DNA of 64,000 nucleotides from an uncultured Wenzhouxiangellaceae bacterium (GCA_964602895.1 CAZRTG010000001.1:494-64493); one strand, 5' to 3'. Positions 19,210 to 64,000 are shown, counted from the first letter of the stretch. Made by a program: numbers and translations. Notes: generated from the sequence alone by a model not told the origin.

Positions 19210-20853
19210 ATGAACAAAATAACCGGCGCCGATGCGATTGTTGAATCGCTAATCGCAAACGATGTAGAAACAGTATTCGGCCTGCCTGGCGGTCAACTGG
19301 ACCACTTATTCGATTCCATTTATCGTGCGGGTGACAAAATAAATTTGATCCACACTCGTCACGAGCAAGGCGCCGCATACATGGCCTTCGGCTATGCACA
19401 AAGCACGGGTAAACCGGGTGTTTATGCCGTGGTGCCCGGGCCTGGCTTGTTGAACTCAAGCGCTGCCCTGTGTACGGCCTGGGCCTGCAACTCGCCGGTC
19501 ATGGCACTGTGCGGCCAGGTGCACCTGGCAGGTATCGACAGCGGCTATGGCCACCTGCATGAAATTCCCGACCAACTCGGCATGATTCGCCATATCACCA
19601 AATGGGCAGAACGCATCAATCATCCTGCCGATACGCCAAAAATAATGCAGCAGGCGTTCAGCGAGCTTCAGTCCGGCCGGCCCAGACCGGTAGAAGTTGA
19701 AATGCCCATGGATGTCATGGGCGCAGAGGCCATGGTTGCAAGCACTGCAAAAGCTTCGCTTGATGCACCGCCGCCCATCGATCCGGATCAGATCAAAGCT
19801 GCAGTAGAAATTTTGCTTGCGGCCAAACGGCCCATGATTGTGATCGGCTCGGGCGCATTGGATGCAGGCAAAGAGTTACTCGCAATTGCCGAGCGTTTGC
19901 AAGCACCCGTAATGTCAAAGCGCAAAGGCAAAGGCGTTGTTTCTGACGAAAACTACCTCAGCCAAAACCTCGTGGCAGGCCACACTCTGTGGGGCCAGTG
20001 CGATGCCGTGCTGGCTGTAGGTACCCGCCTGAAGATGCCTTTGACCATGTGGGGCAAAGACGATGACCTGAAGCTGGTGAGAGTGGATATTGATCCGGTA
20101 GAACTCAATCGAATCTGCACAGCCGAAGTGGGCATAGTGGGAGACGCTGCTACGGTGCTGAACGCGTTGCTGAAAGAGCTGGAAAAAAGTGGCACAAAGC
20201 GAGCCAGCCGGGAGCAGGAACTGAGTGAGTTGAAAGCTACGACAGGTAAAACCATGCGCGAAAAGATCGGGCCGCAGATGGCCTATCTGGATGTTATTCG
20301 CACCGCCTTACCTCGGGATGGCTATTTTATTGATGAAGTTACTCAGGTAGGTTTTGCCTCATGGTCGGGCTTCCCGGTATATGAACCGCGGCATTTTATT
20401 TCGGCCTGTCAACAGGGCACTCTGGGTTACGGCTTCGCCACCGCATTGGGCGTGGCTGCAGCACATCCTGATAAAGCCGTCGTACAGGTCAGTGGCGATG
20501 GTGGTTTCATGTTTACCATGCAGGAGTTGTCAACCGCGGTTCACTATCAACTGAACCTGGTTACGATTATCTTCAATGACAACACCTTCACCAATGTGCA
20601 GCGCCAGCAGGATGAGTGGTTTGATGGACGTCGTATCTGCTCCGACCTGACCAATCCGGATTTTGTGAAAATGACAGAGAGTTTTGGTGCCAGCGCTTAT
20701 CGGGTCAATTCCCCCGCTGAACTGGCCAAAATTCTGCCTGCCGCATTCAACGAACAGGGGCCGACTATTATTGAAGTCAGTCTGACTGAAAGGATGCCAA
20801 CGCCATGGCAATTCATATTGATGGAGCAGAACCGGAAGTCGCTGTGTCCCTGA
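19210..20853 (+). CDS. thiamine-pyrophosphate-dependent enzyme (acetolactate-synthase/2-oxoacid-decarboxylase family) (paralogue 1)
   Basis: 547 aa. TPP-binding motif SGDGGFMF...IFNDNTF. N-terminal Pyr domain GADAIVESLIANDVETVFGLPGG. No ilvN/ilvH-type small subunit nearby. Confidence 0.88.
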   Translation: MNKITGADAIVESLIANDVETVFGLPGGQLDHLFDSIYRAGDKINLIHTRHEQGAAYMAFGYAQSTGKPGVYAVVPGPGLLNSSAALCTAWACNSPVMALCGQVHLAGIDSGYGHLHEIPDQLGMIRHITKWAERINHPADTPKIMQQAFSELQSGRPRPVEVEMPMDVMGAEAMVASTAKASLDAPPPIDPDQIKAAVEILLAAKRPMIVIGSGALDAGKELLAIAERLQAPVMSKRKGKGVVSDENYLSQNLVAGHTLWGQCDAVLAVGTRLKMPLTMWGKDDDLKLVRVDIDPVELNRICTAEVGIVGDAATVLNALLKELEKSGTKRASREQELSELKATTGKTMREKIGPQMAYLDVIRTALPRDGYFIDEVTQVGFASWSGFPVYEPRHFISACQQGTLGYGFATALGVAAAHPDKAVVQVSGDGGFMFTMQELSTAVHYQLNLVTIIFNDNTFTNVQRQQDEWFDGRRICSDLTNPDFVKMTESFGASAYRVNSPAELAKILPAAFNEQGPTIIEVSLTERMPTPWQFILMEQNRKSLCP

Positions 20854-50371: not shown

Positions 50372-50542
50372 GGCGACATTATCCTACAAACAAGCGACTT
50401 GGGCTTGGGCAAGACACTCCTGCCTATTTTCTAGGAATTTGTACCCGTACCTGCAATTGGCGCACAGGGATATGTGCAGTCGCACTCTCCAACACTCTAT
50501 ATTTTTCGTAAAACACTCAGTAGCGAATGGCTATCAACATTG

Positions 50543-52582
50543 TTACGGCCATAAAACTGCCGAGCTATTCCCTGTGGAATCCTTGGCCATGGCGATTATG
50601 CCCATTTGAGAGAGGTGGGATTCTGACCCTGCCAACCCGGAGTTTGACCAACGCGCGGTCCAGTTCATGTTAGACCTGATTACCGGAACCCGTTGCCCGT
50701 TCACATACACACGGAGGTCGATCGCTGACGCCGTTGATACATTGTTATCCGCAATTCCCGGAGCAAGTGTTCCGGTTATGATCAGTTCGGATGAGTTCAT
50801 TTCCTGGCTGACGCTCTCGATTGTGACATGGGGTGGTTTCTTTTGGTTGCGTATCTCAGGCCGTTGAAAAGTGCCTGTCAGAGAAATCGTTTCGTCAGGT
50901 AACGCAGGGGTTGAAACGGGAAGGACTCGCGCTTGCAGGACGGATTCGATGGCCGCGCCAAGTCGTAGCAATTTCTGTTCATCGAAGCGTTTGCCGACGA
51001 TGGTCAGACCCACAGGATAAACAACATCGGGTGACCCAGCGGCCTTATCAACATAGCCCATGGGAATGAAAAGTCCGGGGACACCGAGTTCGTTCAGGTA
51101 GTTAAACCCGTATAGCGGATCAGCATCGACATCACTGCTGGCGGGAAACAAAAGAGCATCAATTTTATGTTGATCCATCCAGCCTCCGAACAACGGACCA
51201 TCGGCCAGTGCCGCAGCATTGCGCAAGGCGTCACTCGCGGGAGAACTGGTGATTTCTAGACCCCTACCGTCGCGGAGAGCCTCGAAACGTTCCCTGAATC
51301 CCTGACCGTTTATCAGTGCCAGAACATCAAGCATGCGATCGGCCGGATCGCCGCACCAACCGCGGCAGAATTTTTCGAAAGCCCAGGCGAAGACGCGAAT
51401 ATTGGCAAGGGCGACACGAGCCGCATAAATGTCCTCGGCCTCAGGCCCAGCGTCGGAAACATCTCGATCTTCGTACCAGGTGTCGTCCAGAACCTGATCG
51501 ACCGGAACGTCGATTTCAATAACTCTGGCCCCGGCACTAATGAGTTTCTCCCGGGTCACGGCAAAGACATCCAGTATCGGTTGCCCAGGTGAGAGATAGG
51601 CCGGCGGAGCAGATTTTTGTGCTGCCAGACGCTCTGGGAATGCAAAGGTTACGCCATGCAGGATGTCAGATGTATCATCTATGGGCGGTGGCATATAGCT
51701 TGCCGGTCTACGTTCCATCATAGGCGGAAGAAACGGTTCCAAAAAGTTTTCCGGATCCTGAGCAACCACCACATCGAGCACCAGGGCTAGATCCCGTACT
51801 GTTCGCGCCATCGGACCAACAACGTCGAATAATGGGTCAGCCGGGCAGATTCCGGCTGTTGAAATCAGTCCCAACGTAGGTCGAATCGAGACAATATTGT
51901 TTCGCGAAGCGGGCATTCTCAAGGAGCCCGCAGTGTCGGTGCCAAAAGATAGCCCGGTCAGACTTGCAGTCACGGCCACCGCAGAGCCGCCGCTGCTGCC
52001 GCTTACGATCTCGGAGCCATAGGGATTGGTGATCGCTCCGAAAGCTTCGGAAACACCGGTCATATCACCGGCAAAACTGTCCAGATTGGCTTTGCCCATG
52101 ACGATGGCGCCCGCCTGACGCATTTTGGCAACGAGGAAAGCATCCTCAACCGGCATCATGTTTTTCCACGCTTTCATTCCCACCGATGTTGGCAGGCCGA
52201 ACACATTAATTGAATCCTTGAACAGGACGGGAATGCCATGCAGTGGACCGAGCAGGATGCCGTCAGCGCGTAATTTGTCCGCGCGTGCTGCCTCCTGCAG
52301 CAGGCCGGGATTGAGAACCGGAACGGCATTCAGCTCTGGTCCATTATGGTCGTAGGCAAAGATGCGATTGAGGTAAAGGGCCGTGAGTTCGACGCTGCTG
52401 AGAGCGCCGGAAGCCATGGCGGTCTGAAGCTGTTCCAGCGAAGCTGTGCTGAGGGTTATGGTTGTGTTTTCTGTTTGCTTTTGAACTGTCTGATCGGGGA
52501 CAGTTTGTGATATGGCTGTAGTCGCCATGATGGCGAAGGCCACGCCAGCCAATAATTGAATTCCAAATGTCGTGACCTTCAT
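50543..52582 (-). CDS. secreted amidase-signature (AS) family amidase with a long C-terminal extension
   Basis: Signal peptide. AS motif GSSGGSAVAV with upstream GLPTSVG. 679 aa, compared with about 480-500 aa for typical AS amidases. Confidence 0.82.
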   Translation of the reverse strand: MKVTTFGIQLLAGVAFAIMATTAISQTVPDQTVQKQTENTTITLSTASLEQLQTAMASGALSSVELTALYLNRIFAYDHNGPELNAVPVLNPGLLQEAARADKLRADGILLGPLHGIPVLFKDSINVFGLPTSVGMKAWKNMMPVEDAFLVAKMRQAGAIVMGKANLDSFAGDMTGVSEAFGAITNPYGSEIVSGSSGGSAVAVTASLTGLSFGTDTAGSLRMPASRNNIVSIRPTLGLISTAGICPADPLFDVVGPMARTVRDLALVLDVVVAQDPENFLEPFLPPMMERRPASYMPPPIDDTSDILHGVTFAFPERLAAQKSAPPAYLSPGQPILDVFAVTREKLISAGARVIEIDVPVDQVLDDTWYEDRDVSDAGPEAEDIYAARVALANIRVFAWAFEKFCRGWCGDPADRMLDVLALINGQGFRERFEALRDGRGLEITSSPASDALRNAAALADGPLFGGWMDQHKIDALLFPASSDVDADPLYGFNYLNELGVPGLFIPMGYVDKAAGSPDVVYPVGLTIVGKRFDEQKLLRLGAAIESVLQARVLPVSTPALPDETISLTGTFQRPEIRNQKKPPHVTIESVSQEMNSSELIITGTLAPGIADNNVSTASAIDLRVYVNGQRVPVIRSNMNWTARWSNSGLAGSESHLSQMGIIAMAKDSTGNSSAVLWP

Positions 52583-52703
52583 TTCGCGGAGACTCCTTTT
52601 TCAAACTTGTGATGATGTTAGGGGAAAGCAGCCGCTATATACAGTGAGGCTATTAGTTCCAACGTAATTTAGCGCATAAGGGTGCATAAAGGGGGCGGTG
52701 CAT

Positions 52704-52754
52704 AAAGGGGACGGGGCAAATTAATTCGTATTAATTTGCCCCGTCCCCTTTTTT
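52704..52754. repeat. hairpin element copy 1: perfect 19-bp stem GGGGACGGGGCAAATTAAT, 4-nt loop, A-tract/T-tract flanks
   Basis: Read directly. It is preceded at 52672-52703 by degenerate tandem copies of GCATAA(A)GGGG. It sits in a divergent promoter region, so it terminates neither flanking gene. Confidence 0.9.
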
Positions 52755-52796
52755 CCTTGGATAATGAAGTTTTAGTGATGTGAAGCAGGAATACCG

Positions 52797-54242
52797 TTGA
52801 GTCTGTCGTTTGCCACCCTCGTTCAATTACGCAAGAGCCATCCTGGCTGGCGCTTGTTGTTGGCTGACCACGCTGCCCTGATTGCCAGCTTCCTGCAGCA
52901 CACCTTCATCGAGTCGAATGTTCGGGTCATGTCTCAGCCGGAGCTGGAATTGCGTCTGGAGGACTTGCTGTTCCAGCTACGGGAGACCGAGGGCGAGGGC
53001 ACTTTTCCCCGCAGTGCTCGTGACTACCTTGACGACTGGGCACAAACGGATCGCGGCTGGTTGCGCAAATTCTATCCACCCGGATCGGATGAGGCTCACT
53101 TTGACCTCACACCCGCCACTGAGAAGGCCATTGCCTGGCTCGAATCGCTGGCACAGCGGGCTTTTGTAGGCACCGAATCACGTTTGATGACGGTATTTGA
53201 GCTGCTGCGTCAGATGGTTGCCGGCAGTGAAACCGATGCCGCCAGTCGAATTGAAGAACTGGAGCAGCGACGGGATGAAATTGACCGCGAAATTGAACGT
53301 GTCCGAGCGGGCGAAATCAGCGTGCTGGACGATACCGCGCTGCGGGATCGCTTCCAGCAGGCCAGCAGCACGGCCAGAGAACTGCTCAGTGACTTCCGCG
53401 AGGTCGAACACAACTTCCGCCAGCTGGATTTACAGGTGCGCGAGCAGATCGCCCGTTGGGAAGGCCGCAAGGGTGAACTGTTGGGGAAAATCCTGGGCGA
53501 GCGGGATAATATTGCTGACTCGGACCAGGGCCGCAGTTTCCGGGCCTTCTGGGATTTTCTGATGGCACCGGCGAGTCAGGATGAATTGACCGAGCTGTTG
53601 CAAAAGGTGTTCGAGCTCGAAGCCGTGAGCAGCCTCAATATTGATGGCCGTTTCAAGCGCATCCACTTTGACTGGCTCGAAGCCGGCGAGCATACCCAGC
53701 GCACCGTGGCGCGGTTGTCACAACAGTTGCGCCGTTACCTGGACGATCAAGCCTACCTTGAGAACAAACGCATCATGCAACTGCTTGACGGGATCTCAGC
53801 CCGGGCGCTGGCCATTCGCGAGCAGTTGCCTGGCGGTGTTTTTTTTACCCTGGCCGCCTCGTCCCCGACGATACAACTGCCAATGGAGCGTCCGCTCTAC
53901 AACCCGCCGCTGAAACCCGTGCTGGATACCATGATCGCCATGGCTGATATCAGTGATATTGATACCGAAGCCCTATATGATCAGGTCGCTATCGACAAGC
54001 CCCTGCTAAAAGCGCAAATCCGCCAACTGTTGCAACAACGCTCCCAGGTTACGCTCGCAGAAGTGGTGGGCAAACACCCCTTGCAGCACGGACTGGCGGA
54101 ACTGGTTGCGTATCTGACCCTTGCAAGCGAGGAGAAGCATGCTTTGTTTGATGATGACCACCCGGAACAGATTGGCTGGCATGACCCTGATGGCCTGCTG
54201 CGCCAGGCCAGGCTGCCCCGTGTGATATTTTCCAGGCCATGA
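52797..54242 (+). CDS. jetA: Wadjet JetA (MksF-like kleisin, DUF3375-type)
   Basis: 481 aa and the first gene of the four-gene operon. TTG start with AGGA 7 nt upstream. The N-terminal pattern LRKSHPGWRLLLADHAALIASFLQHTF and the helical/charged middle are typical of DUF3375 proteins as I recall them. Confidence 0.8.
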   Translation: MSLSFATLVQLRKSHPGWRLLLADHAALIASFLQHTFIESNVRVMSQPELELRLEDLLFQLRETEGEGTFPRSARDYLDDWAQTDRGWLRKFYPPGSDEAHFDLTPATEKAIAWLESLAQRAFVGTESRLMTVFELLRQMVAGSETDAASRIEELEQRRDEIDREIERVRAGEISVLDDTALRDRFQQASSTARELLSDFREVEHNFRQLDLQVREQIARWEGRKGELLGKILGERDNIADSDQGRSFRAFWDFLMAPASQDELTELLQKVFELEAVSSLNIDGRFKRIHFDWLEAGEHTQRTVARLSQQLRRYLDDQAYLENKRIMQLLDGISARALAIREQLPGGVFFTLAASSPTIQLPMERPLYNPPLKPVLDTMIAMADISDIDTEALYDQVAIDKPLLKAQIRQLLQQRSQVTLAEVVGKHPLQHGLAELVAYLTLASEEKHALFDDDHPEQIGWHDPDGLLRQARLPRVIFSRP

Positions 54243-54841
54243 ATTCAAACCCCAACACCCAGGACAACCGCTTGTCACTGCTGCTGATTGCGCTTATGAA
54301 AGGTGTGTTATATCAGGAGCAGGACGCCAAACTCTGGCAACATCTGCTTGAACTCCAGGCAAGGGTGCGCGACTACGTTGCTGTGCTGGGGCTTGAACTG
54401 ATGCTTGACGAAGCCGAAGGCTATGCCTGGCTGCGCAGTCGCCCTGTCGAAGAGAATGAGACCGAGCTTCCGCGACTGGTGGGCCGGCGTCAGCTGTCCT
54501 ATCCGGTGAGTCTGCTGATCGCGCTGCTGCGGCGTAAATTGGCGGAGTTCGACGCGGGTGGTGGTGACACAAGGCTGATTTTGTCGCGGGATGATATCGT
54601 CGAACTGATGCGAACCTTTCTGCCGCCAGGTTCGACTGAGGCGCGTTTGGTTGATCAGATCGAGGCGCATATCAACAAGGTGGTTGAGCTTGGCTTTGTC
54701 CGACGATTGCGTGGTCAGGAACAGATGGTCGAAGTGCGACGTATACTCAAGGCCTTTGTCGACGCCCAGTGGCTCAATGAATTTGACGCCCGGCTGGCGA
54801 CCTATCAGACACAACTGTCCAACGATGAGGAAACGGACTGA
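54239..54841 (+). CDS. jetB: Wadjet JetB (MksE-like KITE subunit, DUF4194-type)
   Basis: 200 aa. LLLIALMKGVLYQEQDAKLWQHLL...VRDYVAVLGLELMLDEAEGYAWLR matches the DUF4194 pattern. ATGA overlap with jetA. Confidence 0.82.
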   Translation: MNSNPNTQDNRLSLLLIALMKGVLYQEQDAKLWQHLLELQARVRDYVAVLGLELMLDEAEGYAWLRSRPVEENETELPRLVGRRQLSYPVSLLIALLRRKLAEFDAGGGDTRLILSRDDIVELMRTFLPPGSTEARLVDQIEAHINKVVELGFVRRLRGQEQMVEVRRILKAFVDAQWLNEFDARLATYQTQLSNDEETD

Positions 54842-57800
54842 TGCAGGAAGGCTTACTGGATTTCGCTTCCAGCGATGAGCTGGCCGGATTCCGTCTGCAT
54901 CGGCTTGAAGTCTACAACTGGGGCACCTTCGATCAGCGGGTATGGACACTGGACCCCAAAGGTGAAAACAGCTTGCTGACTGGCGACATTGGCTCCGGCA
55001 AGTCGACTCTGGTGGATGCCATCACCACCCTGCTGGTTCCGGCGCAGCGCGTCGCCTATAACAAGGCTGCCGGTGCCGAGTCACGCGAGCGCACTTTGCG
55101 CTCTTATGTGCTTGGCTACTTCAAGTCCGAGCGCAGCGAAAGCGGCCATGCAGCCAAACCCGTTGCCCTGCGCGACCAAAACAATTTCTCCATCATTCTG
55201 GGGGTTTTTCGCAACACCGGTTACGACCAGGACGTGACCCTCGCTCAGGTCTTCTGGAGCAGGGACAGCAGTGGCCAGCCATCGCGATTTTATATCGTTG
55301 CGGATCAGATACTGAGCATTGCCACCGATTTTGCCGATTTTGGCAACGACATCAAACAGCTGCGCAAACGGCTGCGTGAGCGGGCCGGTATTGAAGGGCC
55401 TTTCGACAGTTTTCCACCCTATGAAGCCGCCTTTCGCAGGCGCTTTGGTATCGACAATGCCCAAGCCCTGGAGTTGTTCCATCAGACCGTATCAATGAAG
55501 TCAGTCGGCAACCTCACCGACTTTGTGCGCGAGCACATGCTTGAGGTGTTCGAAGTCGAGCCACGAATTGAGGCCCTGATCAGTCACTTTGAGGATCTCA
55601 ACCGCGCTCACGAAGCGGTACTCAAAGCACGTGACCAGGTCGAACGCCTGACACCCCTGGTACAGGATTGTGAGCGCCACCGCAAAGTCGCCGAACAGAG
55701 TCGCTATTGGCGCGATTGTCGCGACGGTTTGCGGTTCTACTTCGCCGGACTGAAAGCCGGTTTGCTCGACAAGCGCCAGATCAGGCTGAAAGATGAAGCC
55801 GAGCGATTGCGTACCCGCGCCGCGCAACAGGCCGAACTACGGCGGCGTCAGTTGGGTGATCGGGACCAGCTCAAGAGCGCCATTGCTGCCAATGGGGGTG
55901 ACCGCCTGGAACGGCTCAAGACCGAAATCGGCGCACGCCATTCAGAATTACAAAAACGCCGCACACGCGCTGACCGATACGCCGAGTTGGCCGACCGCCT
56001 TGAACTGCCCCGCGTCACATCGCTCGATCAATTTCTCAACAATCGCAGTAGCGTGCAACAACGCCTGGCCACGACCGATGAGCGCGAAACGGAACTGCAG
56101 AACAGCAGCGTTGACCAGGCTGTTGAACTGCGGCGCCTGAAAGCCGACCACAGCGCTCTCGACACCGAACTGACCTCGTTGCGTCAGCGCCGCAGTAATA
56201 TCGAAGCACGTCAGATCCAGATTCGCCGCCTGTTGTGTGATGCACTCGGGCTGGACGAGGCCGAAATGCCATTTGTCGGCGAACTGCTGCAGGTGCGTGA
56301 GTCTGAATCCGCCTGGGAAGGTGTGGCTGAAAGGCTGTTACACAATTTCAGTCTGTCACTGTTGGTGCCCGATCCGCATTACGCAGCCGTTGCCGAATGG
56401 GTTGATCGCACGCAGCTCCAGGGCCGCTTGGTGTACTACCGTGTACGCTCCGATCACAGGGCCGCACCGGCAGCAGATACCCAACCCGACTCGCTGGTAC
56501 ACAAGCTTGATATCAAGCCGGACAGCGAATTCTACTCCTGGCTGGAGCAGGAGTTGGTCAGGCGCTTTGACTATGTTTGCTGCGACTCGCTGGAGCGTTT
56601 CCGTCGGGAACATCGTGCGGTGACTCTGGCCGGCCAGGTCAAAACCGGCGGGCAGCGCCACGAAAAGGATGATCGGCACCGGCTTGATGATCGCAGCCGT
56701 TATGTATTGGGCTGGAGCAATGAGGCCAAAATCGCCGCATTGCAAAATCGATCGCAAGGACTGGAGCAGGAGATCCAGGCTGCAGCCGATCGCCTGGCTA
56801 TCGCGCAGCGCCACATTCGTGAGCTCAGCGAAGAGAAATCCAGTCTCGTGCAAATTGAAATGTTTATCGATTTTGATGAACTTGACTGGCAGCAGTTGGC
56901 CCGCAGCATTGCCGACCTGGAAGCGGACCGGGCTGCTCTGGAAGCCAGCTCGGATACACTGAAAACCCTCAACGCCCAGTTGCTTGCGCTGGAAGATGAC
57001 ATGGCCAAGGCCGAACAGCATCTTATGGCGCTGAATAACGATCTGGCACGCAACGATGAAAAGCAGGCCCAGGTCAGTGCCCAGCTTGAAGACTGCCACG
57101 AACAACTCGCTGCCTGTACTGAAGAAGTCCGTGCCGGTCTCGATGCCGAACTGGAACCACTGCGTGCCCGGGCGCTGGGCGAGCATCTGTTGACGGTGGA
57201 ATCCTGCGACAACCGGGAACGCGAAATGCGCGAGTGGTTGCAAGCCAGGATCGACACTTCAGATAAACGTATGCAACGACTGGAGCAGAGCATAGTCGCC
57301 GCCATGCAGGATTACCGTCACGCGTACCCACTGGACACCCAGGAGGTCGACGCCCGTCTCGAAGCTGCTGACGAGTACGGTCAGATGCTGGAGCAACTAA
57401 AGGCGGACGATCTGCCGCGTTTTGCCAAGCGCTTCAAGGCATTACTGAACGAGAATACGATTCGTGAGGTAGCCGGATTTCAGTCCAAGCTCAAAAGTGA
57501 GCGCCAGATCATCCAGGAGCGTATCGACCGCATCAACCAGTCGCTGGCTGATATCGAATACAACCCCGGACGCTATATCGTGCTTGAAGCCCAGGCCAAC
57601 CAGGACGCCGAAATTCGTGACTTCCAACAGCAACTGCGCGCCTGCACTGAAGGCACTTTCACCGGTACGGAAGAAGAAAATTATGCCGAAACCAAGTTCC
57701 TGCAAGTCAAGGAGATCATTGATCGCTTGCGCGGCCGTGAAGGCACCACGGAGCTGGACCGGCGCTGGACCCGCAAGGTTACTGATGTGCGCAACTGGTA

Positions 57801-58215
57801 TCAGTTTGCAGCCTCGGAACGATGGCAACACGACGGCAGTGAATACGAACACTACACGGATTCCGGTGGCAAGTCGGGTGGCCAAAAGGAGAAGCTGGCC
57901 TACACCGTGCTCGCTGCCAGCCTGGCTTACCAGTTCGGTCTTGAATGGGGCGCTGTGCGCTCACGCAGCTTCCGTTTTGTAGTGATCGACGAAGCTTTTG
58001 GCCGCGGTTCCGATGAATCGGCACGTTACGGCCTGGAACTGTTCAAACGTTTGCATCTGCAACTGTTGATTGTCACACCGCTACAGAAAATCCATATCAT
58101 CGAACCGTTTGTTGCCAACGTCGGCTTTGTGCACAACCCTGATGGCCGCGACTCACAACTGCGCAACCTCAGCATTCAGGAATACCGCGCCGAACGAGAA
58201 GCACGTTCGGCATGA
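54841..58215 (+). CDS. jetC: Wadjet JetC (MksB/MukB-like SMC ATPase)
   Basis: 1124 aa. N-terminal Walker A GDIGSGKST. About 700 aa of Glu/Arg/Leu-rich coiled coil. C-terminal signature-like SGGQKE and Walker B FVVIDEAF. The start overlaps the jetB stop. Confidence 0.88.
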   Translation: MQEGLLDFASSDELAGFRLHRLEVYNWGTFDQRVWTLDPKGENSLLTGDIGSGKSTLVDAITTLLVPAQRVAYNKAAGAESRERTLRSYVLGYFKSERSESGHAAKPVALRDQNNFSIILGVFRNTGYDQDVTLAQVFWSRDSSGQPSRFYIVADQILSIATDFADFGNDIKQLRKRLRERAGIEGPFDSFPPYEAAFRRRFGIDNAQALELFHQTVSMKSVGNLTDFVREHMLEVFEVEPRIEALISHFEDLNRAHEAVLKARDQVERLTPLVQDCERHRKVAEQSRYWRDCRDGLRFYFAGLKAGLLDKRQIRLKDEAERLRTRAAQQAELRRRQLGDRDQLKSAIAANGGDRLERLKTEIGARHSELQKRRTRADRYAELADRLELPRVTSLDQFLNNRSSVQQRLATTDERETELQNSSVDQAVELRRLKADHSALDTELTSLRQRRSNIEARQIQIRRLLCDALGLDEAEMPFVGELLQVRESESAWEGVAERLLHNFSLSLLVPDPHYAAVAEWVDRTQLQGRLVYYRVRSDHRAAPAADTQPDSLVHKLDIKPDSEFYSWLEQELVRRFDYVCCDSLERFRREHRAVTLAGQVKTGGQRHEKDDRHRLDDRSRYVLGWSNEAKIAALQNRSQGLEQEIQAAADRLAIAQRHIRELSEEKSSLVQIEMFIDFDELDWQQLARSIADLEADRAALEASSDTLKTLNAQLLALEDDMAKAEQHLMALNNDLARNDEKQAQVSAQLEDCHEQLAACTEEVRAGLDAELEPLRARALGEHLLTVESCDNREREMREWLQARIDTSDKRMQRLEQSIVAAMQDYRHAYPLDTQEVDARLEAADEYGQMLEQLKADDLPRFAKRFKALLNENTIREVAGFQSKLKSERQIIQERIDRINQSLADIEYNPGRYIVLEAQANQDAEIRDFQQQLRACTEGTFTGTEEENYAETKFLQVKEIIDRLRGREGTTELDRRWTRKVTDVRNWYQFAASERWQHDGSEYEHYTDSGGKSGGQKEKLAYTVLAASLAYQFGLEWGAVRSRSFRFVVIDEAFGRGSDESARYGLELFKRLHLQLLIVTPLQKIHIIEPFVANVGFVHNPDGRDSQLRNLSIQEYRAEREARSA

Positions 58216-59384
58216 ATCGCTGGACCACCGCCGATGACCTGCGTGGTCAATTGCTTAAATTGTGGAACCGGGGACGCTTGCTGGCCGATCCTGAAATTCT
58301 TCCGTTGCGTTTGCCACTGCGAGGCCCACAGGCAGGCGAGCTCGGTGCCCGTTTCGCCGCCGTCCGCGACTGGGTGCAATTGTGGGCACAACAGGAAGAG
58401 CAAAAGGGTTTGACTGTCGAGTGGCGCGAAGTCAACTACCGCGAGATCGGCCGCAATCGGCTACCTGCAGCGGTATTGTTTCAACAGCGTGATCAGGCCT
58501 TGGCTTATATCGGCAAACGCCAGTCGGGACGTGATTTTGATCGTTTGCAAGAGCAGATATTGCCATTGTTTCCCGAATTGCGGGATTGGTTGGTGCGTAA
58601 ACCGTTGCAAGCATTGGAACTGAAAGAACAGTGGCCGCGCCTGCTGATGGTATTGGATTGGCTTCGTGCACACCCACGACCTGGCCTGTACATCCGCCAG
58701 ATCGAACTACCCGGTGTTGATACCAAATTTATCGAAGGTCACCGAAAGGTGTTGGCCGAGTTGTTGGATGGTGTGCTCGAACCGGCGCACATCGACTTTG
58801 CAGCGCGAGGCATTTCCAGTTTCGAACAGCGCTACGGTTTTCGCGCCAAGCCGGCGCAGATTCGTTTCCGATTGCTTGATAGCAGGCTGTATGTGCAAAG
58901 CTTGAGTGACTTGCAAATTCCTCTGGAAGACTTTGCCCGGCTTGAGTTTCCGGTCGAGCGGGTATTTATTACCGAGAACGATATCAATGGCCTGGCTTTC
59001 CCCGACTTTCCAAATTCATTGGTGGTCTTTGGCCTGGGTTATGGGCTTGACAGCCTGAAGGGCGCGAACTGGCTGGCGAGCACTGATATTCACTATTGGG
59101 GTGATATTGACAGTCATGGATTCGCCATGCTCGATCAATTGCGCAGTTATTTCCCGCACGCCAGCTCACTGTTGATGGATCGACCCACTCTGCTGGCCCA
59201 CGAAGCCCTTTGGGGTTCTGAATCCATCCCAACGCGCAAGCCCTTGCTGCGACTAAAGCCTGAAGAACAGGCGCTGTATCAGGATCTTAGCCTGGACCGA
59301 ATTGCTCCATCGCTGCGTCTCGAACAGGAACGGATTGGAATCGCCTATTTGCAACAAGCCCTCCACGTACTTAATGGTACTTAA
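58212..59384 (+). CDS. jetD: Wadjet JetD (MksG-like, DUF3322 + Toprim-like DUF2220 nuclease subunit)
   Basis: 390 aa. Toprim-like acidic motifs ITENDING and HYWGDIDSHGFAML. ATGA overlap with jetC. Confidence 0.85.
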   Translation: MNRWTTADDLRGQLLKLWNRGRLLADPEILPLRLPLRGPQAGELGARFAAVRDWVQLWAQQEEQKGLTVEWREVNYREIGRNRLPAAVLFQQRDQALAYIGKRQSGRDFDRLQEQILPLFPELRDWLVRKPLQALELKEQWPRLLMVLDWLRAHPRPGLYIRQIELPGVDTKFIEGHRKVLAELLDGVLEPAHIDFAARGISSFEQRYGFRAKPAQIRFRLLDSRLYVQSLSDLQIPLEDFARLEFPVERVFITENDINGLAFPDFPNSLVVFGLGYGLDSLKGANWLASTDIHYWGDIDSHGFAMLDQLRSYFPHASSLLMDRPTLLAHEALWGSESIPTRKPLLRLKPEEQALYQDLSLDRIAPSLRLEQERIGIAYLQQALHVLNGT

Positions 59385-59428
59385 AGGGGACGGGGCAAAT
59401 TAATTCAAATTAATTTGCCCCGTCCCCT
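59383..59428. repeat. hairpin element copy 2 (perfect 20-bp stem); also a plausible bidirectional terminator between jetD and parE
   Basis: Read directly. The stem sequence is identical to copy 1. The element begins inside the jetD TAA stop codon. Confidence 0.9.
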
Positions 59429-59434
59429 ATTTCC

Positions 59435-59486
59435 TCGCAGTTGATGGGTGTCCGAGCTTTTCGCAGTTGATGGGTGTCCGGACTTT
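59435..59486. repeat. tandem direct repeat, 2 x 26 bp (TCGCAGTTGATGGGTGTCCG-AGCTTT / -GACTTT)
   Basis: Read directly; 24 of 26 positions are identical. It lies between hairpin copy 2 and the parE stop. Confidence 0.85.
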
Positions 59487-59492
59487 TCGTTT

Positions 59493-59819
59493 TTAACGAA
59501 TCAGGCGACGTTCAAGCAATGAAGGTATATCCCTGCGGCCATCCAGGATGCAATGAACGAAAACGTCCTGTCGGGTTATCTCGTAGATGACACGATAGGG
59601 TTTGAAGTGAACCTCTCTGTAGCTTGATACGCCGATTCGTTCCAGTTCGGGTGGAATATGTCCTCGCTCGGGCAGATTGGTTAACCGTGAGCACAAAGAC
59701 TCCAACTGATTCAACACATGATCTGCATTCTCTATGCAGTCATTGAGAACAATGTAGCGGTAGATATCAACCAGATCCTGTTCTGCGTCCTCGACAATTC
59801 GGACACGATAGTTTTTCAC
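59493..59819 (-). CDS. parE: type II toxin, RelE/ParE family
   Basis: 108 aa. The pattern A--DL--I--YI ... PERG ... YR-V-FKPYRVIY-I----V-V--IL-GRRD is typical of ParE-type toxins. GTG start abuts the antitoxin stop. Confidence 0.82.
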   Translation of the reverse strand: MKNYRVRIVEDAEQDLVDIYRYIVLNDCIENADHVLNQLESLCSRLTNLPERGHIPPELERIGVSSYREVHFKPYRVIYEITRQDVFVHCILDGRRDIPSLLERRLIR

Positions 59820-60101
59820 TCAGCCAGTTACCTGCCGTGTTTGCTTACGAACATCAGAAAAGGCCTTTTTAAGGGGTTTGCTGCGACCTTCCTGGATACT
59901 TTTCGAGCTTTGGGCCAACATCTTGAGCAGCGCCAAAGATTCCTGGGTTTGCTCATAGCTGACAATATCCTGGAGCACAGCCCTGACTTCGCCATTTTGT
60001 GTTATCACCATGGCCTGCCGTCCTTCACTGACATCCCGTAGAGCTTCGGCAGTGTGACTTTTCAAGTAGCTGATGGGCCTGACCGATTTGCTCAGCTTCA
60101 T
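59820..60101 (-). CDS. type II antitoxin, Phd/YefM family
   Basis: 93 aa. N-terminal ISYLKSHTAEALRDVSEGRQAMVITQNGEVRAVLQDIVSYEQ is the Phd/YefM fold pattern. Confidence 0.82.
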   Translation of the reverse strand: MKLSKSVRPISYLKSHTAEALRDVSEGRQAMVITQNGEVRAVLQDIVSYEQTQESLALLKMLAQSSKSIQEGRSKPLKKAFSDVRKQTRQVTG

Positions 60102-60122
60102 GATCTGTATTCCTTCGTTGGG

Positions 60123-60135
60123 TTAGTAGTACTAA
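60123..60135. promoter_or_regulatory. palindrome TTAGTA-G-TACTAA, candidate autoregulatory operator of the phd-parE promoter
   Basis: Read directly. It lies 22-34 nt upstream of the antitoxin start. An adjacent TATATT (minus strand) is -10-like. Confidence 0.4.
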
Positions 60136-60192
60136 ATATAGTCCTTATTTGGGTCTGTTGCCATGCGCAACGAGAAATGGCTGAAGTACAAC

Positions 60193-60218
60193 AGGCCGCC
60201 CCGGCAGGGAGGCGGCCT
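60193..60218 (-). terminator. possible terminator hairpin after the DUF1254/DUF1214 gene
   Basis: 8-bp GC-rich stem AGGCCGCC / GGCGGCCT. The downstream U-tract is weak. Confidence 0.35.
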
Positions 60219-60277
60219 GAGTGCATGTGAGGTAGTCAAGTAGCCTATTTCGCCACGACGGAGCCCGGTGATTCGGC

Positions 60278-61804
60278 TCAGTTAACCGGCTCGACTTCAC
60301 CCGGCCGCCAGGTCTTGTTGAACCAGGCCTCCTCTGGCCCGTAAAGCCGCAGAGCTACACTCCAGCCCTTGCCCGGCACCGTCTGTGCCCAGTTGGACTC
60401 ATGGCCCTTGGGCGCAGTCGGCCCGAACCAGACATCCACCGATCCGTCCGAGTTAACCACAACTCCCTTCTTTTGGCTGCCGATGCTCGGGAATTGCTGG
60501 TCGGTTTGTAGCATGGAGCGGGTCTGGTTGTCGTAGACCACGAACGACCAGAAATCTTTGGCCGGGATGTTCGGCGGCAGATGCACCTTGTAGGTTTTGT
60601 TGCCATCGAGCGGCGCGCCACTGGAATCGGTTGCTGCGATCGCGTATTGCGAACCCTTGCCCACCAGCTTCAAGGACATCGCCGGGGTGATCCCGGTGGC
60701 ATAGTAAAGGAAGTGGACCATGGCATCGGTGTTGTCCACGCCCGGCTGCGACTGGAACTTGTAGTTGCCGCCGATAAAACCCTGGAACCAGGCACTGCCC
60801 GGATAATAGGCAACGTCCTTGTCGGGGTACTTGAATACCAGTGCGCGCGCGGTGGCATCGCCGACTGCTGCCGCTTCAGTGAGGATCTGCTTCATCCGTG
60901 CATCGGGATTGAAGGTTTTGCCTTTCTCGATGCCCAAAGCGGCCAGTTGGCCCAGGATCTCCGGGCTGAAAGCGTCGTTGGGCTCGTACTGGACGATCTC
61001 ATTGATGTCCTCATAGAACTTGTAGGTGCTGGCACCGATGGTGTTGAAGTGCTTGCCGGAGGCATTGATGAATTTCATTGGCGGCGGGTTGCCGGCATCT
61101 TTCAGTCTATAAATCCTGGCGTACTTCTTGGTCGCTGCCACCGCCGGAGCGGTGCTGCCGTTCTCGAGGAAACCGCGCCAGAACACCAGATTGCCGTAGG
61201 TTTGGGTGTGGTAGACAAAATAGCCTTCCGGTACATCGCCCTCGTAGCCAGGCGGGAGCAGCAGGTATTTGCCGCCCTGGCCCTTGTCGGGACCCACCCG
61301 GCCGAAATCCGCCACGTAATGGAACCAGTGGTCGTCGATGACGCCAAGCACGTCCGGTGGCGTCTCCAACACGACCGGACCATCCTTCACATCCACCCAC
61401 ATCACGCTGTAGATGCTTTCGGTATTGGGCGTGAGGAAAAGCGACTTGGAATCCATCAGGCTTTCGAACAGCGCCACCGACTGGTTATCGTTCACGCCAA
61501 TGCTGGCCAGACCCTGACGCAGACCTTCGGTCGAGCCGCCAGGCATCGCTGCGAGAAAGACGTTTACGCCACGCTGGAAGGCCAGGTTGTCGTAGACCTT
61601 CTGCACCGTTTCGTCGGTCGGGAAACCGTCGTGGAACTTCAAGGTACCGATGCGTGTTTCCACGGTATCCGGCGTGGTGATCTCCGCCGGTATCGGGGTG
61701 GTCATCTTCATCTTTGGCGCGTCCTGCGCTGTTGCGATACCTGCCGTCAACGCACAGGCAAACACAGTGGCCAGAACAGCCATGGTTTTCATGGGGGTTT
61801 GCAT
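60278..61804 (-). CDS. secreted DUF1254/DUF1214 domain protein
   Basis: Signal peptide MKTMAVLATVFACALTAGIATAQ. The two-domain pattern is recalled from DUF1254-DUF1214 proteins. Start at MQTPMK (GGAGAA upstream). Confidence 0.65.
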   Translation of the reverse strand: MQTPMKTMAVLATVFACALTAGIATAQDAPKMKMTTPIPAEITTPDTVETRIGTLKFHDGFPTDETVQKVYDNLAFQRGVNVFLAAMPGGSTEGLRQGLASIGVNDNQSVALFESLMDSKSLFLTPNTESIYSVMWVDVKDGPVVLETPPDVLGVIDDHWFHYVADFGRVGPDKGQGGKYLLLPPGYEGDVPEGYFVYHTQTYGNLVFWRGFLENGSTAPAVAATKKYARIYRLKDAGNPPPMKFINASGKHFNTIGASTYKFYEDINEIVQYEPNDAFSPEILGQLAALGIEKGKTFNPDARMKQILTEAAAVGDATARALVFKYPDKDVAYYPGSAWFQGFIGGNYKFQSQPGVDNTDAMVHFLYYATGITPAMSLKLVGKGSQYAIAATDSSGAPLDGNKTYKVHLPPNIPAKDFWSFVVYDNQTRSMLQTDQQFPSIGSQKKGVVVNSDGSVDVWFGPTAPKGHESNWAQTVPGKGWSVALRLYGPEEAWFNKTWRPGEVEPVN

Positions 61805-62024
61805 AGTGTCTTCTCCGATTAATCTACGATATCGCTGGTGATGCATTCAATGTCGGTTGCCAACCCACAGGTTGTTGTATCCCGATCTTCTTGTCCCATC
61901 CACACTGCCGCCAGCAACAGCAATTATACAGAGCAGGTAATTGAGCCCACTTGTTTATTTGTGACACACTGTGCCGACTGGTACTGCTTGGCTGCAGTTC
62001 TGGCTGGCAATACAGACGCATCGG

Positions 62025-63107
62025 ATGTCAATGATTCAGACCAGACTATCATCACCCATTACGCGCGCGACCGGCGTCGTTCCGGGCGGCTATGACCGTG
62101 TTGCATCGACGATGGCGTTGGTGCCGTTGCTGGAGCAATTCGGGGTGGGCCTGGACAGTTTGCTGGCCGAATCCGGATTGCCAATTGGCCTGTTCGATCA
62201 TCCCGACAACCTGATTCCCTTCAGGGAAGGCACCCGCCTGCTTGGGCTTTGTGCAGACCGTACCGGATGCCCGCACTTTGGCCTGCTGATAGGTGATGGG
62301 ACGCCGTTGGAGGCCTACGGCATCGTGAGCGAATTGATGAAGTGCGCGGCGGACGTACGGTCCGCACTGCAACTGATGTGCCGATTCATGACGCTCGCCG
62401 ACGGAGGCGGGTTGCTGATGCTGTCCGAAACCCGGCAGTTCGCCCGTTTCAGTTATTCGGTCTACGAACCGGGTGTCGAGCGTACCGAGGTGCTCGGCGA
62501 CATCGTCCTGGGCGTGTCGTGCAACGTGCTACGCGCACTTTGTGGCAGCAAGTGGCAGCCGCACGAAATTCTCTTTTCGCGTAGCCGACCGATCGACATC
62601 CGACCCTACGCCGAGACCCTTAAAGCACCCTTGCGCTTCGATGTCGAACAATCTGCAGTGGTGTTCGAGCGCTCGTGGCTGGATGCTCCGCTAGCCACAG
62701 CCAATCCTGCTCGATTGCACAGCCTTGAGGCCAAAGCCCGTGCGTTGGAAGCCAGTGAAACGGGTGATCTGGTTGCGCAAGTGCGTCGTGTCGTGCGCCG
62801 ACAACTACTGACTGGAACCTGTTCGATGCAATCCATTGCCAACGAGTTGGGTATGCACCGACGCACCCTGGACAGGAAACTGCATCCCTTTGAAGTCACA
62901 TTCAAAACGCTGAGTGACGAGATCCGCTATGAAGTATCGCGTCAACTCCTGGCCGATACCGCGATGCCGGTGACCGCGATCTCACAAAGCCTCCACTACG
63001 CCGACCCCAGTGCGTTCACGCACGCATTCCGTCGGTGGTCAGGCACCACACCCACACAATGGCGCGAATCCGTAAAGGGGACGGGAAAAGGGGACGGGAT
63101 AAATTAA
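62025..63107 (+). CDS. AraC-family transcriptional regulator (N-terminal AraC-type ligand-binding domain, C-terminal double HTH)
   Basis: C-terminal block IANELGMHRRTLDRKL ... ISQSLHYADPSAFTHAFRRWSGTTPTQWR. The start is uncertain (62025/62031/62118). The last 11 codons and the stop are encoded by hairpin element copy 3. Confidence 0.85.
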   Translation: MSMIQTRLSSPITRATGVVPGGYDRVASTMALVPLLEQFGVGLDSLLAESGLPIGLFDHPDNLIPFREGTRLLGLCADRTGCPHFGLLIGDGTPLEAYGIVSELMKCAADVRSALQLMCRFMTLADGGGLLMLSETRQFARFSYSVYEPGVERTEVLGDIVLGVSCNVLRALCGSKWQPHEILFSRSRPIDIRPYAETLKAPLRFDVEQSAVVFERSWLDAPLATANPARLHSLEAKARALEASETGDLVAQVRRVVRRQLLTGTCSMQSIANELGMHRRTLDRKLHPFEVTFKTLSDEIRYEVSRQLLADTAMPVTAISQSLHYADPSAFTHAFRRWSGTTPTQWRESVKGTGKGDGIN

Positions 63108-63136
63108 TCCGGATTAATTTGCCCCGTCCCCTCTTT
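63074..63136. repeat. hairpin element copy 3 (21-bp arms, 19/21 paired, left half-arm AAAGGGGACGGG duplicated)
   Basis: Read directly. GGGGACGGGATAAATTAATCC / GGATTAATTTGCCCCGTCCCC. Confidence 0.88.
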
Positions 63137-63154: not shown

Positions 63155-63203
63155 TGGCGCGCCCGACAAGATTCGAACTTGTGACCCCTGCCTTCGGAGG
63201 GCA
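63155..63203 (-). tRNA. truncated tRNA-Arg(CCG): 3' 49 nt only (anticodon arm to CCA); att-site-like remnant
   Basis: The reverse complement reads TGCC-CTCCGAA-GGCAG-GGGTC-ACAAG-TTCGAAT-CTTGT-CGGGCGC-G-CCA. This gives an anticodon loop with CCG, a perfect T-arm, the acceptor 3' strand and CCA. No D-arm or 5' acceptor strand follows on the 5' side. Confidence 0.7.
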
Positions 63204-63330: not shown

Positions 63331-64000
63331 ATGCCGAAGCGATCAAAAACAAGAATCTCTGACAAAACTGTAAAGCGTAAACCAACCGACCGGCCACAAG
63401 AGTTCCGGGACTGTGACCTTCGTGGTTTCATTCTCAGAATCGAACCAACGGGAACCAAGACTTTTTACTGCGAGTGGGCAAGGGGTAAGAGGAGCCGGAT
63501 CGGTGATGCCAGCCTAATGACCCTGGAATTTGCCAGGGATACTGCGCGAACTCGAATTAATGAAGCAAAGAATGGCGAAGTTCCGGAACCTCAAATTCGA
63601 TCCCGCATTCCAACACTGAAAAGATTGATGGACGATCACTATCGTGATTGGGCAGAGACTCACCAAAAATCAGGCAAAGCCAATTGCAAACGCACAAACG
63701 CTGCTTTCAGTGAGTTCCTCTCTACCAGGATTGACAAAATTTCTCCTTGGCAGATCGACAAGTGGAAATCTGAACGAAAGAAGTCGGGCACAACTCCAGC
63801 AACAATAAATAGGGATCTACGTGGGCTTCGGGCAGCTTTAAACAAGGCTGTAGAGTGGAATTTGGTTAAAAGCAACCCGATCCGTTCCGTCAAGCTACTT
63901 AAAGGTGCGGATATTCCACGGGTGCGCTACTTATCAACGGAAGAGGAAAAGCGGCTAATGAAGGCGTTGGACGCAAGAGAGGTCAGAAAAAGGACAAAGC
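63331..64000 (+). CDS. int: tyrosine recombinase/integrase (P4-type, N-terminal arm-binding plus core-binding domains), 5' part only
   Basis: Hand translation gives MPKRSKTRISDKTVKRKPTDRPQEFRDCDLRGFILRIEPTGTKTFYCEW...TINRDLRGLRAALNKAVEWNLVKSNPIRSVK...RYLSTEEEKRL. The frame stays open to the window edge, so it is missing from the ORF track. Confidence 0.82.
   Translation, partial: MPKRSKTRISDKTVKRKPTDRPQEFRDCDLRGFILRIEPTGTKTFYCEWARGKRSRIGDASLMTLEFARDTARTRINEAKNGEVPEPQIRSRIPTLKRLMDDHYRDWAETHQKSGKANCKRTNAAFSEFLSTRIDKISPWQIDKWKSERKKSGTTPATINRDLRGLRAALNKAVEWNLVKSNPIRSVKLLKGADIPRVRYLSTEEEKRLMKALDAREVRKRTK

Follow-up and report, generated by a model that had tools for sequence, protein, structure and literature searches.

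Three near-identical hairpins stand beside and between the genes of a type I Wadjet operon and an adjacent toxin-antitoxin, DUF1254 and AraC block, within a stretch of DNA 64,000 nucleotides long that was analyzed as a whole (the window). The question raised by this arrangement is whether the hairpins are transcription terminators, the ends of acquired cassettes or members of a repeat family which happen to lie there. We consider it highly probable that they are REPIN or "TIR-repeat" elements with a cognate RAYT/TIRYT transposase, a known kind of element. On this reading each hairpin is a REPIN-type non-autonomous repeat made of two inverted arms of about 21 nt (AAAGGGGACGGGGCAAATTAA) with about 4-6 variable bases between them, and it should be annotated as such and not as a Wadjet-specific signal, a cassette end or a promoter.

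The hairpins and their neighbours

The features of the region are listed below with positions counted from the first letter of the window.

50394-52702, minus strand: strain-variable segment with the amidase gene; other strains have CCC instead; on the right it ends at the left foot of copy 1
50543-52582, minus strand: amidase gene, inside the strain-variable segment 50394-52702
52672-52703, no strand: tandem "foot" repeats left of copy 1; each unit joins local flank (T/G)GCATAA(A) to the outermost 3-7 nt of the arm
52704-52751, no strand: hairpin copy 1, AAA-GGGGACGGGGCAAATTAAT-TCGT-ATTAATTTGCCCCGTCCCC-TTT, between the divergent amidase and jetA starts
52797-59384, plus strand: type I Wadjet operon jetA-jetB-jetC-jetD (Pfam; PADLOC JetA1-JetD1), between copies 1 and 2
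59383-59430, no strand: hairpin copy 2, between the convergent jetD and parE
59493-60101, minus strand: ParE toxin/Phd antitoxin pair (Pfam), right of copy 2
60278-63107, both strands: DUF1254/DUF1214 gene (minus) and AraC-family regulator gene (plus) (Pfam)
63074-63086, no strand: extra partial left arm AAAGGGGACGGGA before copy 3, translated as codons by the araC open reading frame (ORF)
63087-63134, no strand: hairpin copy 3, between the araC 3' end and the CCA end of the tRNA-Arg fragment
63155-63203, minus strand: last 49 nt (3' part) of a tRNA-Arg(CCG) gene, anticodon stem to CCA, 20 nt from copy 3
63331-64000, plus strand: N-terminal part of a tyrosine integrase (Pfam Arm-DNA-bind_3, Int_N, Phage_int_SAM_5), running off the window

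A search of the window with GGGGACGGGGCAAATTAAT returned six matches, the two arms at each of three sites, where 0.02 were expected by chance, and no match was found elsewhere in the window. Half-sites in the rest of the window, sought as 12-mers with up to two mismatches, did not rise above chance. The arms of copy 1 (52704-52725 and 52730-52751) are 22 nt long and 100% complementary around a loop of 4 nt, and those of copy 2 (59385-59405 and 59408-59428) are 21 nt long and also 100% complementary, while the left arm of copy 3 carries two mismatches, with GGGATAAAT replacing GGGGCAAAT. The description in the earlier note, of three copies absent from the rest of the window with perfect stems in copies 1 and 2 and two mispaired positions in copy 3, was thus confirmed. 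When folded as RNA, either strand of every copy gave -35.6 to -40.3 kcal/mol; the z-score lay between -7 and -8.5 in copies 1 and 2, and copy 3 reached about -4. The jetD stop codon TAA (59382-59384) overlaps the A-tract of copy 2.

The gene calls made earlier for the amidase, the type I Wadjet jetABCD, ParE/Phd, DUF1254/DUF1214 and AraC also held, and the Wadjet operon is the context of the repeat and not a part of it. Exact-protein look-ups gave one 2.4-kb contig for the amidase and no match for JetD or the DUF1254 protein. Elsewhere in the window, an ORF at 19210-20853 was dropped as a GroEL candidate since its N-terminus is unlike GroEL. At the right-hand end, the araC ORF (end at 63107) continues across the extra partial arm and on through copy 3's left arm, and its final 11 codons are repeat-encoded. 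The tRNA-Arg fragment is an attachment-site remnant; no full tRNA was called at 63155-63203, where the Rfam tRNA match stayed below threshold, and other contigs run on from the fragment into the D-arm. An island inserted in the tRNA gene begins with this integrase. Both the jet region and a core region of the window are present in 20 sequencing runs (X1-X20), and in X5, X6 and X11 the depth over the integrase region is 0.

A dispersed family and its transposase gene

The 18-nt arm GGGGACGGGGCAAATTAA is nearly invariant in about 90 hairpins, found in metagenome contigs and in three Lysobacterales/gammaproteobacterial metagenome-assembled genomes (MAGs). An exact scan of 185,579 species representatives gave six stretches, three of them the real MAG hairpins and three chance or coding matches, and the arm was exact or near-exact in 95 metagenome stretches. 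The resulting catalogue comprises 91 hairpins, of which 70-77 have flanks of their own; their stems are perfect and 21-26 bp long, identity in stem columns 4-21 is at least 95%, and variation is confined to the three central pairs. The hairpins are therefore not private to the Wadjet locus. Many follow housekeeping genes, for example folE, and a position within 150 nt of a gene's 3' end was found for 51 of 74 hairpins (69%), with 22 of the 74 near 5' ends only and 11 of these between divergent genes. About 15-30% of the family lie 5' of genes or between divergent genes, like copy 1.

Multiple copies are also indicated by contig depth. In samples with the window's organism, the depth of contig words over the hairpin core was 8-34x the local depth (for copy 2, 5-15x as the mean of a 147-nt bin and up to about 34x at the core), and in each run 8-12 or more contigs leave the hairpin into different flanks. 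The copy number looks like tens per genome, an estimate in which the depth may include other species in the same samples. Copies are patchy: contig L034 has five sites in 11.5 kb, and contigs of 0.24-1 Mb have one exact-match stretch each. The arm had no match in the plasmid collection and occurred in viral contigs as one solo arm. At gathering score no Rfam family was returned, the hairpins matching only generic miRNA-hairpin models below threshold. A full-text literature search for the arm found no paper; the arm sequence is new and absent from the searched literature.

Single arms of the same sequence are the terminal inverted repeats of a Y1/HUH transposase gene of 230-240 aa at six independent loci (L034, L101, L025, L042, L103 and L105-107). 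The product of L034:7927-8655 matches Pfam Y1_Tnp and scores 64.9 bits on the NCBIfam model REP_Tyr_transpos vs 18.8 on the IS200 model. Homologues in L101, L025 and L042 have single flanking arms with their outer ends facing away from the gene, and homologues retrieved by protein alone, P0002 (L103) and P0025 (L105-107), have these arms too. REP_Tyr_transpos is matched by all 40 aligned homologues at 65-70 bits, below the curated cut-off of 80. Residues H60, H62 and Y120 never vary among them and, aligned with ISDra2 TnpA, fall on its HUH motif and tyrosine. The sequence of a single RAYT protein found no match in the PDB, and a profile and a predicted fold were needed: the AlphaFold model (pLDDT 75.8) found as its best PDB structural match by Foldseek the E. 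coli REP-associated transposase 4ER8 (E 2.3e-7, TM 0.69, all 165 residues).

In these units the left arm is 115-130 nt upstream of the ATG and the right arm about 20-65 nt past the stop, overlapping it in L034. The RAYT units, and only these, have a GTAGG on the opposite strand some 30 nt inside the left arm; the repeat itself has no GTAG tetranucleotide head, its ends being AAAGGGG and CCCCTTT. The window contains no RAYT gene. The L105 RAYT locus is present in 14 of the 20 runs with the window's organism, and from this co-occurrence we infer that the organism's genome probably carries the gene.

The same arms thus border a usually single-copy RAYT/"TIRYT" gene in the same lineage, a group of uncultured Lysobacterales-like gammaproteobacteria living in sludge, leachate and sediments. 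The earlier preference for a REP/MITE-like repeated element over independently evolved terminators is well founded, given the roughly 90 invariant-arm hairpins, the multi-copy depth and the RAYT-flanking arms. Established here are the family and its invariant arm, the patchy multi-copy distribution, the arm-RAYT-arm units, the RAYT co-occurrence, and an enzyme with HUH motif, tyrosine motif and RAYT-like fold. They make a clean RAYT/TIRYT example in an uncultured lineage, with an invariant 18-nt arm, stems of 21-26 bp and arm-gene-arm units, and could suit the biochemistry of RAYT/TIRYT-type enzymes, whose mechanism is still poorly known.

From this we would propose that the transposase binds arms folded as single strands, makes and reseals its cuts close to the foot, and may have spread the short hairpins into intergenic sites. 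No pair of filled and empty sites was found for a hairpin alone. Once transcribed, a hairpin would form a stem of -36 to -40 kcal/mol between an A-run and a U-run, and could then terminate transcripts from both sides, or stabilise their 3' ends, at jetD/parE and araC/tRNA-Arg. As DNA, the long perfect palindrome would be a fragile or recombinogenic point, and strain-level indels and synteny breaks at hairpin feet may arise because of it.

Cassette ends, terminators and other readings

The earlier note had also suggested that the hairpins might be a recombination scar delimiting inserted cassettes, and hairpin edges do meet strain differences. On this account jetABCD and the ParE/Phd-DUF1254-AraC block would be horizontally acquired cassettes bounded by recombination sites or scars, brought in or exchanged at the palindromes. 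The left foot of copy 1 is the exact end of the amidase indel: the joint 50393->52703 is at full depth in X5 and X11, and the amidase-less allele occurs in four contigs from four samples (L108, L109, L111, L112), where copy 1 directly abuts an MscS gene. To the right of copy 2, ParE/Phd depth in leachate strains is 2-4x vs about 22x, and their araC allele is about 11% diverged. Further away, L034 has a 2.6-kb two-gene segment between two hairpins where L002 has one hairpin, the other flank differs in 10 of 30 flank-matched comparisons, and relatives have AbiE or Fic genes at the same spot.

Against this, every strain seen has jetABCD together with the three hairpins, no empty site lacking jetABCD was found among them, and no cassette gene recurs beside hairpins in another context. 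No dedicated recombinase is adjacent, the nearby integrase belonging to the tRNA-inserted island; housekeeping genes such as folE precede many family members; and fragility alone predicts breakpoints at long palindromes. A "cassette delimiter" role of the hairpins is not shown by these comparisons, and we regard cassette-bounding sites as an unlikely account of them.

A stronger form would have the RAYT, or recombination between palindromes, move or swap gene blocks, with the repeats as working boundaries of a defence/TA island. Since each hairpin holds both arm orientations, the DNA between two hairpins, for example the 6.6-kb jetABCD, has the same ends as an arm-RAYT-arm unit. We think it quite improbable that blocks are moved in this way. 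Repeat clusters occur in L034 and L002 as well as in the window, and the clustering most likely reflects that insertions and recombination are tolerated in a variable region beside a tRNA integration site, with no functional connection to Wadjet indicated. The REPIN-type reading leaves two leads, the indels and synteny breaks at hairpin feet and the tandem flank duplications with a preferred break, neither of which alters the current understanding of Wadjet.

That the hairpins are ordinary, immobile intrinsic terminators, alike by common descent or convergence, is very unlikely. The G+C-rich stem base with A- and T-runs and the frequent position just past gene 3' ends fit this account, but it does not explain an 18-nt invariant sequence at about 90 sites with unrelated flanks in different MAGs, copies in divergent promoter regions, solo arms, or arms as inverted repeats around a transposase gene, and the same block has an unrelated ordinary terminator at 60192-60219. 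The RAYT association brings this account close to refuted. Terminator function as such is a separate matter: judged from structure, copies 2 and 3 are plausible bidirectional terminators, and the REPIN-type hairpin may plausibly double as one in general. Copies 2 and 3 have U-tracts that are short or broken up (UAUUU/UUUAAG and UCUUU/UUUU), and in a simple terminator scan only copy 1 passed, on the plus strand (UUUUUU). The RNA data consist of one metatranscriptome with 5% of the words, in contigs which carry no strand or end information and break at the repeat. In Neisseria and Haemophilus, inverted pairs of uptake sequences act as bidirectional intrinsic terminators. The hairpins here are alike in being an inverted pair of a repeated sequence, with a stem between an A-run and a T-run after convergent genes, but differ in that there are no abundant single copies and no competence link, and a transposase gene is associated. 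The jetA promoter proposed earlier in the right arm of copy 1 (TTGCCC-18-GATAAT) was rejected, as its 9/12 match is no better than shuffled sequence (7 such found vs 6.7 expected).

A classical MITE moved by a DDE transposase recognising terminal inverted repeats of 18-22 bp would share the layout of inverted repeat, short centre and inverted repeat, with a longer unit of the same ends enclosing a transposase gene. The enclosed gene encodes a Y1/HUH enzyme and not a DDE one, however, and no target-site duplications were found, direct repeats in the flanks of 71 elements being about as frequent as chance predicts (two cases of 3 nt, one of 4 nt, none of 5 nt). Bacterial MITEs such as NEMIS/Correia, ERIC and RUP measure 70-300 bp (PMC3733652); they too are non-coding, with terminal inverted repeats, form RNA hairpins and adjoin genes, but the element here is only about 48 bp. 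The DDE-type MITE was rejected for want of a target-site duplication, and we give it hardly any credence. A protein-binding palindrome of local role (defence or TA operator, Xer or integron-type site, uptake-sequence pair), suggested by a perfect palindrome near the jetA start and the TA module, can practically be dismissed: the same sequence stands beside unrelated genes in many genomes, the 64 kb hold no single uptake-type copies, and sequence inspection found no GTTRRRY core, no dif-like 11-6-11 layout, no extrahelical bases and no intI integron integrase, the only integrase being the tRNA-island enzyme.

Known relatives and the repeats at the hairpin feet

The nearest published counterparts are the TIRtrons, TIRYT tyrosine transposases with dispersed TIR repeats, most numerous in Stenotrophomonas maltophilia K279a (Di Nocera, De Gregorio & Rocco 2013; PMC3733652). 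RAYT-like genes with long inverted repeats starting GGGGWSAS and moderately abundant dispersed repeats are described there as most numerous in S. maltophilia, which, like the hosts of our family, belongs to the Lysobacterales. The systems are alike in having a RAYT-like Y1 gene with long inverted repeats at fixed distance, unrelated to GTAG REPs, and an arm which is also a moderately abundant repeat family with dimers and clusters. The arm here starts GGGGACGG, an incomplete match to the published GGGGWSAS at 7 of 8 positions (PMC3733652). The systems differ in that the dimers here are head-to-head, with 4-6 nt between arms and perfect 21-26-bp stems with A/T runs, and in the recurrent foot-stutter duplications, which are not among the features given in the consulted passages (PMC3733652).

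As in the REPIN concept of Bertels & Rainey 2011 (PMC3116915), the hairpins are extragenic elements formed from two inverted repeat units. Further likenesses to REPIN-RAYT systems are a single-copy cognate gene with the same units inverted on both sides, solo arms as decayed copies, and an enzyme whose best structural match is the E. coli REP/TnpA-REP structure 4ER8 (PMC3479197). In contrast to classical REPs the element lacks the typical GTAG head, its single arm is not itself palindromic, a much shorter spacer separates its arms than in Pseudomonas REPINs, and the copy number looks like tens. Flanking 16-mers occur on average 57-140 times per replicon with RAYT groups 2 and 3, compared with about 12 times with group 1 (PMC5581495).

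The partial duplications of the left arm reported earlier before copies 1 and 3 were found as described. At copy 1 the flank repeats run GCGCATAAGGG/TGCATAAAGGGGGCGG/TGCATAAAGGGGACGG... at 52672-52714, and at copy 3 AAAGGGGACGGGA is present twice at 63074-63099. The amidase-less allele is without the foot stubs of copy 1. Family-wide, foot stubs were found in 54 of 144 flanks vs 3.4% of control windows, and whole additional solo arms in 13 flanks. Short tandem foot repeats are thus a trait of the whole family, and the duplications, in more than a third of family flanks, have a favoured break after GGGGACG. Were gene blocks indeed moved by the RAYT or by exchange between palindromes, the place where the enzyme cleaves within the stem would be marked by this foot stutter of 5-7 nt, a tandem repeat of flank plus GGGGACG found on either side.

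Hairpin copies around the Wadjet operon

A search of the window with the 19-mer GGGGACGGGGCAAATTAAT returned six matches, against 0.02 expected by chance; they form three sites, each with a pair of inverted arms. Each arm is the ~21-nt half of a hairpin, and the three hairpins were located as follows.

52704-52751: hairpin copy 1, perfect arms of 22 nt, loop of 4 nt
59385-59428: hairpin copy 2, perfect arms of 21 nt, loop of 2 nt
63087-63134: hairpin copy 3, left arm with two mismatches

No other copy or half-copy of the hairpin was found in the remaining 53 kb of the window, confirming the three copies reported in the earlier note. Its partial repeats at the left foot (the outer end of the stem) of copies 1 and 3 were also as described, and its gene calls stand: amidase (-), type I Wadjet jetABCD (+), ParE/Phd (-), a DUF1254/DUF1214 gene (-) and an AraC-family gene (+).

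RNA folding of the hairpins gave -35.6 to -40.3 kcal/mol per copy on either strand, and on these folding models the hairpins could plausibly terminate transcripts in both directions, or stabilise their 3' ends, at jetD/parE and araC/tRNA-Arg. The A-run of copy 2 is overlapped by the jetD stop codon. Copy 1 lies 46 nt upstream of the jetA start, and the jetA promoter that had been read into it was not upheld, as its 9 of 12 matching positions are no better than chance. The araC ORF ends inside copy 3, after crossing the additional partial arm in front of that copy and then its left arm (63074-63107), so that its last 11 codons (VKGTGKGDGIN) are encoded by the repeat. The ORF of a REP-associated Y1/HUH tyrosine transposase (RAYT) on metagenome contig L034 has the same kind of ending (KGDGAN), indicating that the repeat provides C-terminal codons and a stop.

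Two other repeated structures were observed nearby. Just past copy 2, beyond the parE stop (~59433-59486), there is a tandem repeat of 26/27 nt, CGCAGTTGATGGGTGTCCG(A/G)(G/A)CTTTT, present twice, one unit of which is missing from minor contigs of X5 and X6, two of the sequencing runs that contain the window's organism (X1-X20). Downstream of the DUF1254/DUF1214 gene is an ordinary G+C-rich terminator-like hairpin of unrelated sequence (60192-60219, minus strand), indicating that the repeat is not used at every gene end of the block.

Dispersed repeat family and associated RAYT-type gene

When one genome per species was scanned for exact matches, the hairpin turned up in three MAGs (an uncultured gammaproteobacterium and two Lysobacterales), where it stands after housekeeping-type genes such as folE. 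The metagenome scan gave 95 stretches, from which 91 hairpins were catalogued, 70-77 of them with unique flanks. They read as a variable flank and an A-run, then the invariant GGGGACGGGGCAAATTAA, and, past a centre that varies, the arm in inverted orientation and a T-run. The centre, 4 nt long in the window, measures ~6 nt in most copies and is frequently palindromic itself; perfect stems mainly span 21-26 bp, and in 15 of 70 copies the palindrome has no loop. Over 43 distinct sequences, 18 stem pairs showed at least 95% identity and variation was confined to three central pairs, indicating that the sequence itself is conserved, beyond structure alone.

In four metagenomes that contain the window's organism the contig word depth over the hairpin core was 8-34 times the local depth, and at least 8-12 contigs per run left the hairpin into differing flanks. 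The spread is patchy, with five sites in 11.5 kb on L034 and three in 8 kb on contig L002, while contigs of 0.24-1 Mb had one exact-match stretch only. Crude ORF calls place 51 of 74 hairpins no more than 150 nt from a gene 3' end and 22 near 5' ends only, 11 of these between divergent genes like copy 1. The REP/MITE-like reading put forward in the earlier note was therefore right, given a dispersed family with an invariant arm, multi-copy depth and arms beside a transposase gene.

That gene was recognized on L034 as a 242-aa ORF with a solo arm on one side and a full hairpin on the other. It matched Pfam Y1_Tnp and scored 64.9 bits against the NCBIfam "REP-associated tyrosine transposase" model vs 18.8 bits against IS200. 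Homologues with 66-72% identity on L101, L025 and L042 have single arms on either side, the outer ends facing away from the gene, and L101 is a clean arm-gene-arm unit of ~900 bp. Two relatives retrieved by protein alone, P0002 and P0025, have the same arms alongside, the left one 115-130 nt upstream of the ATG and the right one ~20 nt past the stop. The HUH histidines and one tyrosine are invariant in 40 homologues and correspond in alignment to the active site of ISDra2. For the structure predicted for P0025 (pLDDT 75.8), the best PDB match was 4ER8, a complex of the E. coli REP-associated transposase with a REP hairpin, followed by the IS608 and ISDra2 transposases. A protein search returned more than 7,600 relatives, most on just one or two contigs; those named (57-68% identity) are from the Lysobacterales genera Mizugakiibacter, Dyella, Xanthomonas and Luteimonas. 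The motif TT(T/A)CCTAC was conserved ~30 nt inside the left arm of RAYT units only (L101:270-290, L034:7825-7845, and upstream of the RAYT start in L103 and L105); on the opposite strand it reads GTAGG, reminiscent of the classical REP GTAG head.

There is no RAYT gene within the 64-kb window. The P0025 locus was present in 14 of the 20 runs that contain the window's jet region together with a core region, and all but one of its top twelve runs fall within this set. Because of this co-occurrence across runs, the cognate RAYT gene is very likely in the same organism as the window, whose nearest relative by the MscS gene (left of the amidase) is Marinicella (67% identity; Lysobacterales).

The hairpins fit the REPIN concept, a pair of inverted repeat units that a single-copy RAYT mobilises in trans (PMC3116915). 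Closer still is the fit to the TIRtron/TIRYT type of Di Nocera et al., whose paper (PMC3733652) describes RAYT-like genes between long inverted repeats sharing GGGGWSAS, accompanied by moderately abundant dispersed repeat families as dimers and clusters, and most numerous in Stenotrophomonas maltophilia, likewise a member of the Lysobacterales; the arm here begins GGGGACGG. By analogy with the family, a RAYT acting on folded single-stranded DNA would spread the hairpins.

Partial arms beside the hairpins

Of 144 hairpin flanks, 54 had partial arms (stubs) no more than 60 nt away, vs 3.4% of control windows. Their length peaks at 7 nt (GGGGACG; 28 cases), with a second class of whole extra arms (13 cases), and they are tandem duplications of the local flank and outer stem on one or both sides. 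Stubs arise quickly. L019 has them on both sides and its relative L060 has none; in the window they are present in the amidase allele and absent from the amidase-less allele. The stubs could come from a defined cut by an enzyme within the stem, from stalling of the polymerase with template switching, or from staggered cuts at an extruded cruciform.

Strain variation at the hairpin feet

Two features lie at the right end of the window.

63155-63203, minus strand: 3' 49 nt of tRNA-Arg(CCG), anticodon stem to CCA
63331-64000, plus strand: N-terminus of a tyrosine integrase, running off the window

The tRNA fragment and adjoining integrase mark where an island inserted in the tRNA gene ends. For three related metagenome strains the depth on the integrase side was 0; the intact tRNA was found on other contigs.

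The hairpins had also been proposed as recombination scars delimiting acquired cassettes, which is unproven, although differences between close relatives do coincide with hairpin feet. In the main strains from two metagenomes (runs X5 and X11), and in contigs from four samples (L108, L109, L111 and L112), CCC stands in place of the amidase segment 50394-52702 (2,309 bp). This indel has its right junction at the left foot of copy 1, and in the amidase-less allele MscS, hairpin and jetA lie within ~120 nt. Relatedness to strains of the organism in leachate metagenomes is mosaic: ParE/Phd, right of copy 2, had a depth of 2-4x vs ~22x, ~1/10 of local depth (59441-60300), and araC is 11% diverged (61884-63085), while jetC/D are nearly identical (2 of 2957 positions differ). 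L034 has two hairpins with a two-gene 2.6-kb segment between them at a place occupied by one hairpin in L002, which also lacks the RAYT gene of L034. The opposite flank differed in 10 of 30 flank-matched comparisons. However, jetABCD and all three hairpins were present in every strain seen, and none of the cassette genes was found again beside a hairpin elsewhere. Relatives with 77% MscS identity have no hairpin at all; upstream of their MscS gene an AbiEii pair or a Fic-domain gene (L116:671-2279; L115:8898-9956) stands in for amidase, hairpin and Wadjet, indicating a variable defence/TA spot. The region is a variable spot beside a tRNA-Arg(CCG) gene invaded by an integrase-bearing island. 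Long palindromes are expected sites of breakage and recombination, and such a spot with palindromes as break points sufficiently explains the clustering of the hairpins.

Among the ~90% identical genomes of L034, L002 and L004, peptidase C1, CMD-family, MBL-fold and folB/folE genes are gained, lost and reordered around hairpins, the order of CMD and MBL being reversed in L004.
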